The notes under the pieces are model-generated. The model was not told where the DNA came from. It ran no database searches and saw only the letters and a list, made by a program, of their open reading frames with translations. Of a stretch of 64,000 nucleotides of DNA, positions 1,692-8,726 are shown piece after piece. The stretch is from Verrucomicrobiota bacterium. Its GTDB lineage: Bacteria > Verrucomicrobiota > Verrucomicrobiia > Limisphaerales > SXTU01. The stretch is from contig JACRKB010000189.1 of NCBI GenBank assembly GCA_016235545.1, positions 1,863-65,862 of the forward strand, given 5' to 3'. Each line of letters opens with the position of its first letter. Position 1 is the stretch's first letter. A program made the translations under genes and the position numbers.

Positions 1692-2486
1692 ATGAAACTC
1701 GGACGTCTCCCCGCCCTCGCCGGTCGCGCCTTCACGCTCATCGAACTGCTCGTCGTCATCGCCATCATCGCCATTCTGGCGGGCATGCTGTTGCCGGCCT
1801 TGAGCAAGGCCAAGGCGAAGGCAAAGACGACGCATTGTTTGAACAACAACAGACAACTGGGAATGGCGACGATGCTATACAAGGATGAGTTTGATGACCG
1901 GTATTGCTTCGGCACATTCCGGGTCAACAATCCGGCGACGCTGGTGAACCCGGGCGGCTGGGTGACGATGCTCATCACCTACATGGGGGGCAGCACCAGC
2001 AGCCCGCCGAAGGCGTTTGTTTGCACTTCCGCCATGACCGATGCCTTGGGGGCTTTCCCTTTCAAAATGCATTACCGGGCCAACCGGCACATCTTCCGCG
2101 ATACGACCTTCGCGCCGGCTCCCACTCCGGTGCGCGGCGCGTTCATCCAGAATCCGTCGCTGATCAACATCCACACGGAGAAGGATGCCAACAATGGCGG
2201 CTTCAGCGACGATGTGGGGGCCTTCGACGGCTACCGCACGAGTTGGAACTTTCCTCCTGATGGGCGCACCAGCTTGAAGCGGCACAAGGGGGGGATGGTC
2301 GGCACGGTGGCGGATGGGCATGCGGAGTGGTTCAGGATGCCGCCGTTTAGCAGCGGGGCCACTCCTCCCGCCAACCTGGAGGAGCTGGGAGACATTGCGG
2401 GCCTCGACCAGAGCGGTGCCAGCTGGCCCAAGAGCGGGCGGGAGAAGTTCTTCCTGCGGTTCCAGAATGCCAATGGAGGATTCTGA
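1692..2486 (+). CDS. Prepilin-type N-terminal methylation domain protein, tandem paralog 1
   Basis: In-frame ATG at 1692 gives [45 protein letters not shown]. The C-terminal [17 protein letters not shown] is H-X9-DG-like. The product ends NANGGF like paralogs 2 and 3. The longer ORF from 1446 has no pilin-like leader logic. Confidence 0.85.
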
Positions 2487-2508
2487 ACGCATCAACCCCA
2501 AGCCTGCC

Positions 2509-3312
2509 ATGAAACTCAACCGTCACGCCGCCCTTGCGCGTCGAGCCTTCACGCTCATCGAACTGCTCGTGGTCATCGCCATCATCGCGATTCTTGCTGG
2601 CATGCTGCTGCCGGCCTTGAGCAAGGCCAAGGCGAAGGCGAAGCAGACGCAGTGCTTGAACAACAGCCGGCAACTGGGGATGGCGACGATGCTTTACAAG
2701 GATGACTTCGATGACCGGTATTGCTTCGGGACCTCGAGGGTCCAATTTGCGCCGATGATGCTAAGCCCGAGCGGCTGGCTGGTGATGCTCATGCCCTACA
2801 TGGGCGGCAGCACCAGCAGCCCGCCCAAAGCTTTCGTCTGCCCCGCCGTGATGAATGACGCTTTGGCGACGAATAATTACGCGTTCAAGATGGATTACTG
2901 CGCCAACCGGCACGTATTTCGTGACCTGACTTTCGTGCCGGCTCCCAGTCCGGTGCGCGGTGCGTTCATCCAGAATCCGTCGCTGATAAACATCCACACG
3001 GAGAAGGACGCCGACCAAAGCGGCTTCAGCGACGACGTGGGAGCCTTTGACATTTATCGCACCACTTGGAACAGGGCTTCTAGTAATGGCCGCCCCGGCC
3101 GGCGGCGGCACAGCGGGGGCATGGTCGGCACCGCTGCGGACGGGCACGCGGAGTGGTTCAGGATGCCGCCTTTCAGCAGCGGGGCCACGCCTCCCGCCAA
3201 CTTGGAGGAGCTGGGAGACATCGCGGGCACTGACCAGAGCGGTGCCAGCTGGCCCAAGAGCGGGAGGGAGAAGTTTTTCCTACGGTTCCAAAATGCCAAT
3301 GGAGGATTCTGA
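2509..3312 (+). CDS. Prepilin-type N-terminal methylation domain protein, tandem paralog 2
   Basis: ATG at 2509, 22 nt after the stop of paralog 1, gives [22 protein letters not shown]. Both ends are near-identical to paralog 1 while the middle has diverged. Confidence 0.85.
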
Positions 3313-3334
3313 ACGCATCAACCCCAAGCCTGGC

Positions 3335-4123
3335 ATGAAACTCAACCGTCACTCCGCCCCTGCCCGGCGTGCCTTCACCCTCATCGAACTGCTCGTGGTC
3401 ATCGCCATCATCGCGATCCTTGCGGGTATGCTGCTGCCGGCCTTGGGAAAGGCGAAAGCGAAGGCGAAGCAGACGCAGTGCTTGAACAACAACCGGCAAC
3501 TGGGGATGGCGACGATGCTTTACAAGGATGACTTCGATGACCGGTATTGCTTCGGCAACCAAGTCACCACTCCGGCGAACCTGATGAGCCCGCTGGGCTG
3601 GGTGGCGCAACTCATCACCTACATGGGCGGCAAGACCAACAGCCCGCCCAAGTCACTTGTCTGCTCCGCCGAACCCGATGTCTCCGCCGGGGCGTTTGCG
3701 TTCGTCGTGCATTATCGCGCCAACCGGCACCTCTTTCGCGACGGGGGCTTCACCGTTCCCGTCCCGATTCGCGGCACAGCTATCCAGCGACCGTCGGAGA
3801 TAAACATCCATTCGGAGAAACACGCCACCAACATCAACTTCAGCGCGAACAACGCCGCCTACACCGGCTTCCGCACCAGTTGGAATAACCTCCCTGTCCC
3901 GCTGCTTGGTATGAGGCGGCACAATGAGGGCATGACCGCCACCGCTGCGGATGGGCGTGCGCTGTGGGTCAAGATGCCTCCCTACCTCGGCAACAACATT
4001 GCCCCGACGGGCCTGGAGGAGCTAGGTGACATCGCGGGCGACGACCAGCAGGGTGCCAACTGGCCCAAGACCGGGCGGGAGAAGGTTTTCATCCGCAACA
4101 ATAATGCCAATGGAGGATTCTGA
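3335..4123 (+). CDS. Prepilin-type N-terminal methylation domain protein, tandem paralog 3
   Basis: ATG at 3335, 22 nt after the stop of paralog 2, gives [22 protein letters not shown]. The product ends NANGGF. Confidence 0.85.
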
Positions 4124-4145
4124 AAGCATCAACCCCGAGCTTCGC

Positions 4146-5009
4146 ATGAAACTCAACCGTCACTCCGCCCTTGCCCGTCAGGGCTTCACCCTCATCGAAC
4201 TGCTCGTGGTCATCGCCATCATCGCGATCCTGGCCGGGATGCTCCTGCCGGCGCTGGCCAAGGCCAAGGCCAAGGGGCAGGGCATCGCGTGCCTCAACAA
4301 CAGCCGACAGATCATGCTCGCGTGGCAGCTTTATTCCGGCGACCACGACGACCGGATGGCGTGGTGCGCGAACAGCATCAACGCGGGCAAGCAGGCCAAC
4401 GCAGCGAGCTGGGTGACCGGCTTCCTGGGCAAGCCGGGCACGGCTCCCACGGACAACACAAACACCGACATGCTCATCGGCCAGAGCTATGTGCAATTTG
4501 GCTCCATCGGCCAATACACGAAGGCGGCGCAGGTCTATAAATGCCCTGCCGACAAGAGCACGTTCAACAACGCCCCGCGCACGCGGAGCATTTCGATGAA
4601 CGGCTTCATGAACCCGAACCCGACAAGCAGTCCCAGCGCCGGCCTGACCACGGGCGTGTATGCCACGCTCGCCAAGTTCAAGCGTCTCGGCGACCTCGTG
4701 TCCCTCTCGCCCGCGAACGCGATGGTGTTCTGGGATGAGAACGAGGACAGCATGAACGACGGATTTTTCCTCGTCGTGGGGAATGGCGCAAATCCCAAGG
4801 ACCCCACCCAATACCGGATTGTGGACTGGCCAGCCGCCTATCACAACGGCGCGGCAGGCATCGCCTTCGCGGACGGCCACTCGGAGATTCACAAATGGGA
4901 GGATGCGCGCACCATGCCGAAAATCGGGCAGTTGCCGGCGGGCACTGTGGCACAGCCCAACAACAACGACATCGGCTGGATGCAGGCGCACGCGACAGCG
5001 GGGCCTTGA
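4146..5009 (+). CDS. Prepilin-type N-terminal methylation domain protein (DUF1559-like), tandem unit 4 with unrelated body
   Basis: ATG at 4146, 22 nt after the stop of paralog 3. It shares the same leader [22 protein letters not shown], but the mature domain differs. The C-terminal [16 protein letters not shown] is an H-X9-DG motif. Confidence 0.85.
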
Positions 5010-5036
5010 CCTGCCAGCCGCAACTCAAGAATTTAC

Positions 5037-5771
5037 ATGAACATGAAACACCTGACACCCCTGCTCACCTTCGCCATCGCCAGTGCCTTTTCAGTGGCGG
5101 CGGCGGAAGCGGAATTCAAGCCCCTCTTCAACGGCAAGGACCTCGCCGGCTGGGAAGGGTTGCCCGGATACTTCTCCGTGAAGGACGGGGTGATTCACGC
5201 CGAGACGACAGCCGCGAACGCGCTCAAGAAAAACACGTTCCTCATCTATACCAACGCCGAGTTCGGTGACTTCGAGCTTCGATTCGACTACAAGTGCGTG
5301 GGAGGCAACTCTGGGATGCAATACCGCAGCGAGCGGCTGCCGGACTTCGTGATGAAAGGCTACCAGTCCGACTTCGAGAACCAGAACCGTTTCACCGGGA
5401 TGTTCTTCGAGGAGAACGGCCGCATGTTCATGGCCTACCCCGGCGAATACGTGACGGTGAAGCCGCTCGGCCAGCTCACTCCCGAAGAAGCAGGAAAGAA
5501 AAACAAACCCAAGGCCCGGCTGGACAAGGTGAAGTTCGCCACGACGGACGAGGCCTTCAGCCACATCAAGGACGCGACCGCGTGGCACGCCATGACCATC
5601 ATCGCCCGTGGCAACACCTTCGTTCACATCCTCGACGGCCGCGTGATGAGCGTGGCAGTGGATGAGGACGCGGCGAACTTCCGCAAGTCCGGCCTGCTCG
5701 GCCTGCAGGTCCACCAAGGCCCGCCGATGACCATCGACTTGAAGAACGTGCGCATCCGGGAGCTGAAGTGA
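5037..5771 (+). CDS. DUF1080 domain protein (3-keto-disaccharide hydrolase-like, secreted)
   Basis: Signal peptide, then FKPLFNGKDLAGWEG. The C-terminal GLLGLQVHQGPPMTIDLKNVRIRELK is the characteristic DUF1080 ending. Confidence 0.85.
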   Translation: MNMKHLTPLLTFAIASAFSVAAAEAEFKPLFNGKDLAGWEGLPGYFSVKDGVIHAETTAANALKKNTFLIYTNAEFGDFELRFDYKCVGGNSGMQYRSERLPDFVMKGYQSDFENQNRFTGMFFEENGRMFMAYPGEYVTVKPLGQLTPEEAGKKNKPKARLDKVKFATTDEAFSHIKDATAWHAMTIIARGNTFVHILDGRVMSVAVDEDAANFRKSGLLGLQVHQGPPMTIDLKNVRIRELK

Positions 5772-5780
5772 GGCGCGAGA

Positions 5781-5809
5781 GCAGCCCCAATCTTTGGGTT
5801 TTCTGCTGC
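5781..5809 (+). terminator. Possible rho-independent terminator after the DUF1080 gene
   Basis: GCAGC-CCCAA-TCT-TTGGG-TTTTCT-GCTGC: a short GC-poor stem (CCCAA/TTGGG) followed by a T run. It starts 10 nt after the stop codon. Confidence 0.35.
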
Positions 5810-6793: not shown

Positions 6794-7882
6794 CTACACC
6801 GTCTCGCCGGGGACATAAGCTGGCATCAGCCGGATGGAGATCGCGGGCAGCGTGCCGGTTTCGGCCAGTTGCCGGGCCGCCAGGGAGATACGGCGTGCGA
6901 ACCGGGCGGGATCGACGGCGTAGCGCGCGATGGACGGGCTGGTGGCCTGCAGATAGGTGTCGTCGTCGCGCGAGATGACTGCCACATCCTGCGGGATGCG
7001 CCGGCCCCAGCGCATCAGGTGCATCATCACCGTTAGCACATGGGTCGGGCGCGCGACAACGTAGGCGGTGGGCGGGCCGGATTCCCGCAAGGCGTCGTCG
7101 AGCAGCGAGCAGAGGTGCTCGGCGGTGCCATCGTGCCGCAGCACTCGCAGTTGCGTGTCGCGTCCGGTGCCTAGCGATTCACGCAACCCCTCCTCGCTGG
7201 CGACATCGCCGGCGGCATTTCTCTGCGGCAGCACCAGTGCGATCCGCTGATGCCCTTTGCGCAACAGAAGGCCGCCCGCGTGCCGGCAGACGGCGCGATG
7301 GTCAGCATCAACAGAGGGCAGGGCGATGCCCGGGCAGGAGGACCCCAGGACCAGGCAGGGCAGCCGTTGGCGAAAGAACCATTTCTGCGTTGGCTCCGCA
7401 GAACCGACCAGCAGCCAGACTGCGGCGGAGCGGGCGTGAACGAGCTGCCGCAACGCGCGCGCGGGATGGGCTGAGAAGCAGCGGGGGATGACGTGCAGCT
7501 CCATCGAGCATCCCGCGTTGGCCAGCTTTTCCCGCAGCACGTCCACGAGCACGAGCGCCTTCTGGGACATCGCCTGCAAGGGCGAGGGGGAAAGCACTGC
7601 CACCATGCCTTTCGGGGCGGCGGGTCTGGCAGCGGCCCGCTTGCGTTTGATGCGGCGGGATTGACGGTGCGTGACATCGAGCCAGCCCGTGCGCTGCATC
7701 TCCTCCAACGCGGTGCGCAAGGTTCGGCGGCTGACCTGGAGGCGCTCACACAGCTCGCGCTCGCCAGGCAGACGCTTCTGCCAGTGGCCTGCGAGAATGC
7801 CCTCGCACAGGGTGTGCATTGTCTGGGTGACGAGCGAGAGGCGCTTGGGCAGTGCAGGGGAGTGGGCGGTTTTGGCTGTCAT
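6794..7882 (-). CDS. GntR-family HTH transcriptional regulator with LacI/PBP1-type sugar-binding domain
   Basis: Start at MTAKTAHS (ATG at 7882). The longer ORF to 8152 would overlap the opposite-strand pilin gene. The HTH LPGERELCERLQVSRRTLRTALEEMQRTGWL is GntR-like. The C-terminal ~270 aa resemble periplasmic-binding-protein type I effector domains. Confidence 0.8.
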   Translation of the reverse strand: MTAKTAHSPALPKRLSLVTQTMHTLCEGILAGHWQKRLPGERELCERLQVSRRTLRTALEEMQRTGWLDVTHRQSRRIKRKRAAARPAAPKGMVAVLSPSPLQAMSQKALVLVDVLREKLANAGCSMELHVIPRCFSAHPARALRQLVHARSAAVWLLVGSAEPTQKWFFRQRLPCLVLGSSCPGIALPSVDADHRAVCRHAGGLLLRKGHQRIALVLPQRNAAGDVASEEGLRESLGTGRDTQLRVLRHDGTAEHLCSLLDDALRESGPPTAYVVARPTHVLTVMMHLMRWGRRIPQDVAVISRDDDTYLQATSPSIARYAVDPARFARRISLAARQLAETGTLPAISIRLMPAYVPGETV

Positions 7883-7903
7883 CTGGTCCCGTAAAGTGAC
7901 CAG
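7883..7903. promoter_or_regulatory. Candidate GntR-type operator CTGGTC-N9-GACCAG
   Basis: Perfect 6-bp inverted repeat with a 9-nt spacer. It abuts the regulator start codon and lies 95 nt upstream of the divergent pilin-like gene. It contains the GT...AC core typical of GntR operators. Confidence 0.45.
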
Positions 7904-7997
7904 AAGCTTAAGGTTGTCCCCGGCAACCGACAAGGCAAAGGTAGCTGCATGGGCAGTAGAATGAATCGCTTCAGCCAGGCAACCAACTGATTCTCGT

Positions 7998-8726
7998 ATG
8001 AAAGCCAAGTTCTCCTCCGCGTTCACCCTCATCGAACTCCTCGTCGTCATCGCGATCATCGCGATCCTGGCTGGAATGCTCCTGCCCGCCTTGTCCAAGG
8101 CCAAGGACAAGTCCATCGGCATCAAGTGCGTGAGCAACAAGAAGCAGATCACGCTGGCGATGCTGCTCTACGCGGGCGACAACGACGACCAGCTTCCGCA
8201 TTTCGCTTACAATTTCCCTGCGCCCTTCACCAATTGGTGGTGGATGGCGATCAGCCGTTACGTCGGCGTTTCCAACGTGACCACCACGACCACCGCCGCC
8301 GGTGCATTCGGCGGGCGAGATTTGGAATGCCCCAGGGTCAGACATGCCGCGAATGCCCCGACCTACAGCATCAACTACGGTGTGGTGTTTCGCTATCTGG
8401 CACCTTCCCTTGGAGCACTCGGTTCCGGTTCCAAGCGGCTGGCGGTGCTTCCGCCTGCTACTTATCTGTTGTTGGACGCCACCAACATCGTTTACTCGCC
8501 CGCCAACTGGGCATTCAACACGGACTACGACGGCGACGGTCTCGTGGACGGGCACAGCGCCCTGAGCAACCCCTACTACAACGGCTTGTCCGCACCTCAT
8601 GGCATGTCAGGTGCCACGCAACGGGGTCAGGCTGACAAGGCCTCGATGGGCTTCGTGGATGGCTCCGCCCGGTTGGTTTCGCGCATTGAATTCGTCCGGG
8701 GCACCAACATGTGGGGCGGACTGTAG
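7998..8726 (+). CDS. Prepilin-type N-terminal cleavage/methylation domain protein
   Basis: [39 protein letters not shown]. The C-terminal [14 protein letters not shown] is a degenerate X9-DG motif. Confidence 0.85.

Follow-up and report, generated by a model that had tools for sequence, protein, structure and literature searches.

A tandem array of mosaic prepilin-like genes within a conserved gene module of a soil/water verrucomicrobial genome

How do four neighbouring genes come to be separated by spacers of exactly the same length, with ends that resemble one another and middles that do not? The question is raised by a 64,000-nucleotide stretch of contig JACRKB010000189.1 (hereafter the window) from a Verrucomicrobiota bacterium, a soil/water verrucomicrobial genome, in which four successive plus-strand open reading frames (ORFs), g1 to g4, each begin with a prepilin-type N-terminus. 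The source is a 5.0-Mb metagenome-assembled genome (MAG) of 311 contigs, with 64.5% GC and an estimated completeness of 95%, whose relatives are labelled Limisphaerales or Pedosphaera. The answer favoured here, with a probability of roughly 70%, is a lineage-specific tandem expansion, by means of non-allelic recombination, inside a conserved module composed of a g1-type gene, a g4-type gene and a hydrolase gene.

The four ATG codons lie at positions 1692, 2509, 3335 and 4146, with start-to-start distances of 817, 826 and 811 nucleotides (nt), and the stop codons end at 2486, 3312, 4123 and 5009; the coordinates confirm the spacing and the exact 22-nt spacers described in an earlier note on this DNA. 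The elements of the array are the following.

1692-2486, plus strand: g1, prepilin-type protein of 264 amino acids (aa), the copy nearest to the single orthologue of relatives, with a short tree branch and the motif H198-X9-D208-G209
2487-2508, plus strand: spacer J12, 22 nt
2509-3312, plus strand: g2, fast-evolving chimera of 267 aa: leader of the g4 type, 5' end g3-like until about nt 224, body and tail g1-type
3313-3334, plus strand: spacer J23, 22 nt
3335-4123, plus strand: g3, mosaic of 262 aa: leader of the g4 type, then a 5' end of the g1 type until about 3555
about 3556-4102, plus strand: body of g3, outside the g1 clade and nearest to solo C262-type paralogues; the tail that follows is array-type
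4124-4145, plus strand: spacer J34, 22 nt, homologous to the 22-29-nt g1/g4 spacer of relatives
4146-5009, plus strand: g4, distant paralogue of 287 aa in the same superfamily, 86-93% conserved in relatives, the source type of leader and junction

Relatives have a simpler arrangement. Two congeneric genomes (G013 and G009) and a metagenome contig (L049) each possess one g1-type gene at the syntenic place, whose product shares 77-80% aa identity with g1, 69% with g2 and 64% with g3, and a g4 orthologue (86-93% identical) follows it after 22-31 nt; in G013 and L049 the next gene belongs to the 3-keto-disaccharide-hydrolase family. The closest g1 orthologue (87%) is found on a 936-nt contig (L051) that shows the g1-type gene only, followed by a like spacer. 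No close relative of g2 or g3 was present in the genomes and contigs searched: an exact-protein look-up of g2 returned no match, and a scan of metagenome and genome contigs with g2 returned relatives of at most 57% identity, bar a 62-residue N-terminal match at 66%. Among the genomes searched, the three-copy array occurs in this one only. The one g1-type gene of the relatives is thus represented by three genes here, and the extra copies carry a g4-type leader and the junction between a g1 tail and a g4 head.

The origin of this junction can be read from the leaders and the gene ends. In relatives, leaders of the g1 type read MKSRACPA.. or MLQIQ.., and those of the distinct g4 type read MKLKPHSAIACRA or MKLDHHSALARRA, with the pattern MKL[KD][PH]HSA..; the leaders of g2 and g3 are of the g4 type, and that of g1 is partly g4-like. 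Likewise, g1, g2 and g3 all end in NANGGF-TGA, and the g1 orthologues end in N/SAGGGF. Over the junction core, which takes in the last 21 nt of the gene, stop codon included, and the whole spacer (-21 to +22), J12 and J23 are identical at 42 of 43 positions, and J34 matches either of them at 38-39 of 43. Near-identity spans only about 45-60 nt around each junction. The earlier note had described the ends of the first three genes as almost base-identical; this is true of the junction core, whereas over their first 30-45 codons (the note had spoken of about 35) g1 and g2 are only 86-93% identical, with a synonymous divergence (dS) of 0.3-0.4.

At the protein level g1 and g2 are 80% identical, g1 and g3 65%, g2 and g3 63%, and g1 and g4 about 32%. 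The last 59 codons of g1 and g2 are about 92% identical (dS 0.44, nonsynonymous divergence (dN) 0.02); the near-identity claimed earlier for some 60 C-terminal codons is therefore overstated, above all for g3, which is only about 70% identical to g1 and g2 there and differs from them by about 30% over the last 160 nt. The many substitutions and the small indels (1-2 codons) reported for the central parts are indeed seen in the alignments. By contrast, the body of g4, which had been taken as unrelated, is that of a distant paralogue: its segment just past the helix matches g1 (BLASTP E = 2e-7), and the H-X9-DG motif is common to both.

A profile of identity and of dN/dS along the genes, which the earlier note had called for, places nonsynonymous change in the central parts, but dS for g1 versus g2 lies within 0.3-0.6 both at the ends and in the middle, with synonymous sites partly saturated or biased in this GC-rich genome and a proportion of synonymous differences (pS) that reaches a plateau of about 0.45 in the bodies. 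Dating by dS, unreliable beyond low values given this plateau, was dropped. The ends of g1 and g2 hold as many silent changes as the middle; their likeness is therefore put down to selection on the protein. A history of plain tandem duplication, after which the copies diverged independently, with the ends kept similar by purifying selection on the helix and on the H-X9-DG region and with no exchange between copies, would account for this pattern (dN is about 0 at the ends), as it would for the fact that the differences between g1 and g2 sit where the family as a whole is variable (entropy 2.28 versus 1.46, p = 2e-7). Such a history would, however, leave each gene with a single ancestry along its length.

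This is not what the phylogenies of separate segments indicate, in which the orthologues and the solo C262-type paralogues were included. In the 5' segment (alignment codons 22-82), g3 lies inside the g1 clade (support 99/99) and is paired with g2 (82-88%). In the body (codons 83-226), g1, g2, o9 and o13 form a group (100/100) from which g3 is excluded, and the approximately unbiased (AU) test rejects the grouping {g1,g2,g3} with p = 2.8e-7. In the C-terminal tree g3 joins the C262-type genes (98/97), and the same grouping is again rejected (AU, p = 0.017). g1 and g2 are sisters in the body and in the C-terminus (96/95 and 100/99). g3 has in common with the C262-type genes two deletions of one codon each, as well as the motifs ADGRAxWxKMPPY and FAFVVHY, and it is array-type only over the first 220 nt and the final ~20 nt. 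In g2, the informative sites change from agreement with g3 to agreement with g1 at about nt 224 (maximum chi-square 75.8, a value not reached by any permutation), in a scan that took in the 60 nt upstream of each ATG, where agreement of g2 with g3 is expected by construction because g1 has no family gene before it. Within coding nt 1-180, 18 informative sites unite g2 with g3 and 9 unite g2 with g1. Both g2 and g3 are hence mosaics, with breakpoints near nt 220 and, in g3, also about 20 nt before the stop codon.

The 5' agreement between g2 and g3 culminates in a pair of tracts.

2632-2729, plus strand: exchange tract in g2, with exact repeats of 34 and 63 nt shared with g3
3458-3555, plus strand: partner tract in g3, whose 3' edge is the point where g3 departs from the g1 type

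The two tracts differ by one mismatch in 98 nt, and over the 29 codons around them the dS between g2 and g3 is 0.06, as compared with 0.50-0.63 for g1-g3 and g1-g2; they record a recent exchange. Among the 66 paralogues compared, no pair other than g2 and g3 combines near-identity in the 5' segment with dissimilarity in the body. Shuffling of heads across the whole family in this genome was considered and rejected, the discordant 5' end being confined to g2 and g3. At the level of sequence, non-allelic recombination between copies is supported because the segment trees conflict, because the dS of the tract is as low as 0.06 and because leader and junction are of the g4 type in g2 and g3. The same evidence makes duplication without exchange rather unlikely: the trees conflict strongly, a single history is rejected for g3, and neither the tract nor the g4-type leaders would be expected; in addition, g1, g2 and g3 have in common a derived tail and junction that the orthologues lack.

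A further feature of the array is the unequal pace of its members. The pair formed by g1 and g2 is sister to the closest orthologue, and the g2 branch is about three times as long as that of g1 (0.24 versus 0.08 in the body). Out of 32 aa differences that could be polarised, 27 are derived in g2 and 5 in g1. The differences cluster at g1 residues 76-96, 112-129 and 184-199, patches that also vary in the family at large. In an AlphaFold2 (AF2) model of g1 (predicted local distance difference test (pLDDT) 92.5), which has an N-terminal helix of 50 residues and, after it, a mixed head, these patches fall mainly in loops, together with short helices. The most variable patch is located just after the helix.

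2731-2796, plus strand: patch P1 in g2 (g1 residues 75-96), loop after the N-terminal helix

In P1, dN/dS between g1 and g2 is 1.6 (15.5 nonsynonymous and 3.5 synonymous differences). The earlier note had wondered whether the variable segment maps to an exposed face; the variable patches do fall in loops and short helices, and these would probably be exposed. It had also proposed that crossing-over or conversion homogenises the ends while the exposed middle diversifies in place. Recombination between copies, for which tree conflict, tract and leaders speak, supports one part of this proposal, but it is purifying selection that preserves the likeness between the ends of g1 and g2. Diversification in place, for its part, describes the g2 branch only, the middle of g3 being largely older and of different ancestry.

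Could the array be an artefact, in which related genes of different loci or strains were chained by the assembler through short repeats? The genome is a MAG of many contigs, the g3 breakpoint coincides with the edge of the 63-nt exact repeat, and neither g2 nor g3 is found in an independent assembly among those searched. Against this, the bodies of the copies differ by 20-35% and each tail, junction and head contains several single-nucleotide polymorphisms; no exact repeat between copies exceeds 63 nt, a length shorter than ordinary reads, the next longest being 48 and 41 nt, and a repeat node would need to be passed twice. Moreover, the flanks are syntenic with those of relatives. Judged by their sequences, the copies are too divergent for a collapsed or expanded repeat, and a chimeric assembly is quite improbable.

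Programmed antigenic variation may also come to mind. In the pilE/pilS system of Neisseria, conserved pilin segments provide the homology for non-reciprocal exchange of variable heads between one expression locus and silent cassettes that are promoterless and 5'-truncated. The array resembles it in being made of pilin-type genes with conserved segments and exchanged variable heads, and conserved flanks, variable middles and one recent conversion tract are what a single expressed copy, with the others serving as donors for frequent conversion, would be expected to leave. It differs in that 5'-truncated cassettes are missing: all four genes are complete ORFs with their own ATG and leader, probably co-transcribed, and none is a silent cassette. 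Exchange has, in addition, been rare on an evolutionary scale (dS is at least 0.3 in most segments), and the discordant 5' end is limited to two adjacent genes among the 66 paralogues. A system of this kind is thus very improbable here. A diversity-generating retroelement was rejected as well, no match to the PF00078 reverse transcriptase being found in the 95%-complete genome.

Returning to tandem expansion by non-allelic recombination, the events could have run as follows. The ancestral module would have been [g1-type]-spacer-[g4-type]-[hydrolase]. Unequal crossing-over, with neighbouring paralogues pairing at their conserved 5' helix-coding parts, would have duplicated the upstream gene along with the tail-spacer-leader junction; the constant 22 nt and the g4-type leaders would have arisen because each event copied this junction. 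Recombination may have been seeded in the nearly invariant stretch coding for the N-terminal helix: an identical 24-residue helix is encoded by 58 paralogues of this genome, with a mean nucleotide identity of 85% over those 72 nt. The body of g3 would have a separate origin, either as an old duplicate or by ectopic exchange; no donor was found in the genomes and contigs searched. A short conversion between g2 and g3 would have come later, after which g2 would have diverged faster than g1. I infer this sequence of events, as well as the sites of crossing-over, from the present genes.

What the array encodes is best seen against its family. g1-g4 belong to the very large family of N_methyl plus DUF1559/H-X9-DG proteins that is specific to the Planctomycetes-Verrucomicrobia-Chlamydiae (PVC) group. 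The genome contains 76 prepilin-like ORFs, 47 of which have the H-X9-DG pattern in their last 120 residues. All four genes score above the cut-offs for PF07963 N_methyl (27.7-34.3 bits, cut-off 21.2) and TIGR02532 (27-33 bits, cut-off 16.3), and all four have F+1, E+5 and a hydrophobic helix; at position -1, g1-g3 have Ala and g4 has Gly, both residues being common there among the paralogues of this genome. The H-X9-DG motif is present in all four, and in 68 homologues H198 and G209 are invariant and D208 is conserved in at least 90%. As to PF07596 DUF1559 (cut-off 23.3), g2 scores 29.0 bits, g3 22.5 and g4 23.2, and g1 has no match, the matches being limited to positions 2-62 or 11-132 of the 268 of the model; for TIGR04294 (cut-off 19), g4 scores 15.5 bits and g1 has no match. 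Public names of homologues are restricted to "type II secretion system protein" or "prepilin-type ... domain-containing protein".

DUF1559 is the largest paralogue family of Planctomycetes and its function is unknown (PMC10632474, PMC2754498), with 68 such paralogues in Planctopirus limnophila (PMC10632474) and 74 in Rhodopirellula baltica (PMC2754498). Like the DUF1559/H-X9-DG families of Planctomycetota, Verrucomicrobiota and Lentisphaerota, the array genes combine a class III (prepilin) signal and an invariant helix with a head of some 230 aa and, close to the C-terminus, the H-X9-DG motif, and they have dozens of paralogues per genome. They depart from those families in that the DUF1559 matches cover only the first ~60 positions of the model, above the cut-off in g2 alone, and in that the array subfamily is restricted to Limisphaerales-like genomes. 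The DUF1559 literature that was found makes no mention of a tandem mosaic array.

A second comparison is with the pseudopilins GspG-K of the type II secretion system (T2SS) and with type IV minor pilins. The N-terminal methylation motif and the long alpha-1 helix of g1-g4 match solved pilins and GspG, and the host genome encodes a PilD-type peptidase (a PF01478 match in a 375-aa open frame on contig C109), at least four ATPases of GspE/PilB size and secretins. In contrast to T2SS pseudopilins, g1-g4 remain far under the equivalog cut-offs (for TIGR01710 GspG, 26-30 bits over the N-terminal ~55 residues only, against 88.85), and in searches of solved structures by sequence and by Foldseek against the PDB only the N-terminal helix was matched; the head gave no significant match, the best hit (E = 0.49) covering the helix alone. 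Nor do they lie beside any secretion machinery: all PilD, T2SSE and secretin matches of the genome are on contigs other than that of the array, in agreement with the earlier observation that the window holds no pilus or T2SS machinery. g1-g4 are probably cleaved by the PilD of this genome and act as pseudopilin-like subunits of the envelope or surface, with their variable loops exposed.

The downstream partner offers a modest lead on function.

5037-5771, plus strand: DUF1080 gene of the 3-keto-disaccharide hydrolase family (PF06439, E = 2e-33), secreted, the conserved downstream partner

This gene is syntenic in G013 and L049. The 22-27-nt spacers, the lack of any plus-strand terminator-like site inside the array and the presence of the only one at 5786-5798 suggest an operon running from g1 through g4 to the hydrolase; minus-strand terminator-like sites are no more frequent in the array than in shuffled sequences, and no sigma-70-like promoter was found. 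g1-g4 may work with the probably co-transcribed glycan enzyme, a pseudopilin-like role tied to glycan use being suggested because the hydrolase partner is conserved.

Several points weigh against the tandem expansion as proposed, or against parts of it. The order of the array rests on one MAG contig, and the search of other assemblies gave no close relative of g2 or g3. How exactly the events followed one another is beyond reconstruction, the body of g3 forming a long branch between the two clades with no donor found, and ages based on partly saturated or biased synonymous sites are rough. The dN/dS above 1 in P1 hangs on about 19 differences in 22 codons. Lastly, Ala at position -1 of the leaders of g1-g3 is non-canonical, Gly being the canonical residue, and expression, cleavage and assembly of g1-g4 are predictions.

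DUF1559/H-X9-DG proteins are among the largest paralogue families of Planctomycetes and Verrucomicrobia, with functions still unknown, and the locus provides one concrete route by which such families grow: neighbours recombine through helix-coding sequence, and the chimeras diverge fast in loops. It has been tempting to go further and to regard the junction and the invariant helix stretch as a docking cassette, behind which new heads, including one from outside the array (the g3 body), would be plugged in under one promoter, diversifying the exposed tips of pseudopilus-like structures that work with the glycan enzyme. This extension is doubtful; if it were true, head-swapping would be a general evolutionary route of the huge PVC pilin-like families. 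Otherwise, the array is a case of ordinary gene-family evolution, a clear tandem expansion in a known, uncharacterised family, in which the conserved pairing of two pilin-like genes with a secreted enzyme of the 3-keto-disaccharide-hydrolase type offers a modest clue to function.

Some minor observations concern the starts of the genes. The frame of each downstream gene is open back to an ATG within the last codons of the previous gene (2466-2508, 3292-3334 and 4103-4145), and the same upstream open frame, with ATG or GTG, exists in G009, G013 and L049 and is absent from L051. An N-terminal extension from these in-frame ATGs was rejected: g1 has no such ATG, all spacer changes are non-synonymous in that frame, and L051 breaks it. 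A family-wide upstream motif was rejected too, CAAGCCTGCC-ATG being confined to this array and the leaders of the other paralogues being unrelated and A/C-rich. Rfam gave no match in the 440-nt leader or in the spacers.

Others concern the neighbourhood and the wider genus. The g4-type gene and a signal-peptide-bearing PF06439 gene stay adjacent in the window (4146-5771) and in G013 and L049 (L028, 9026-10640; L049, 6839-8464), although their upstream neighbours differ, those in L049 being genes for an AraC regulator, a DUF6298 protein and a sulfatase. Same-strand pairs of subfamily members within about 1 kb are also seen in other congeneric genomes (G009:C528, G015:C89, G016:C146 and G005:C111), and paired paralogues appear to recur across the genus. 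Genes of this Limisphaerales type are carried by public MAG records titled 'uncultured Klebsiella sp.' and 'Akkermansia muciniphila' (L023, L024, L025), titles that look like mislabels. In the DNA that immediately precedes the window, another member of the family (C129:1105-1932) ends 27 nt before g0, and at least seven prepilin-like genes lie within about 11 kb of this neighbourhood. Finally, on the minus strand, the first ~50 residues (7998-8152) of a 452-aa regulator ORF (6794-8152) correspond to the helix-coding part of the pilin-like gene g5 read in antisense; the true start of this GntR/PBP regulator is probably further in, near MTAKTAHSP.

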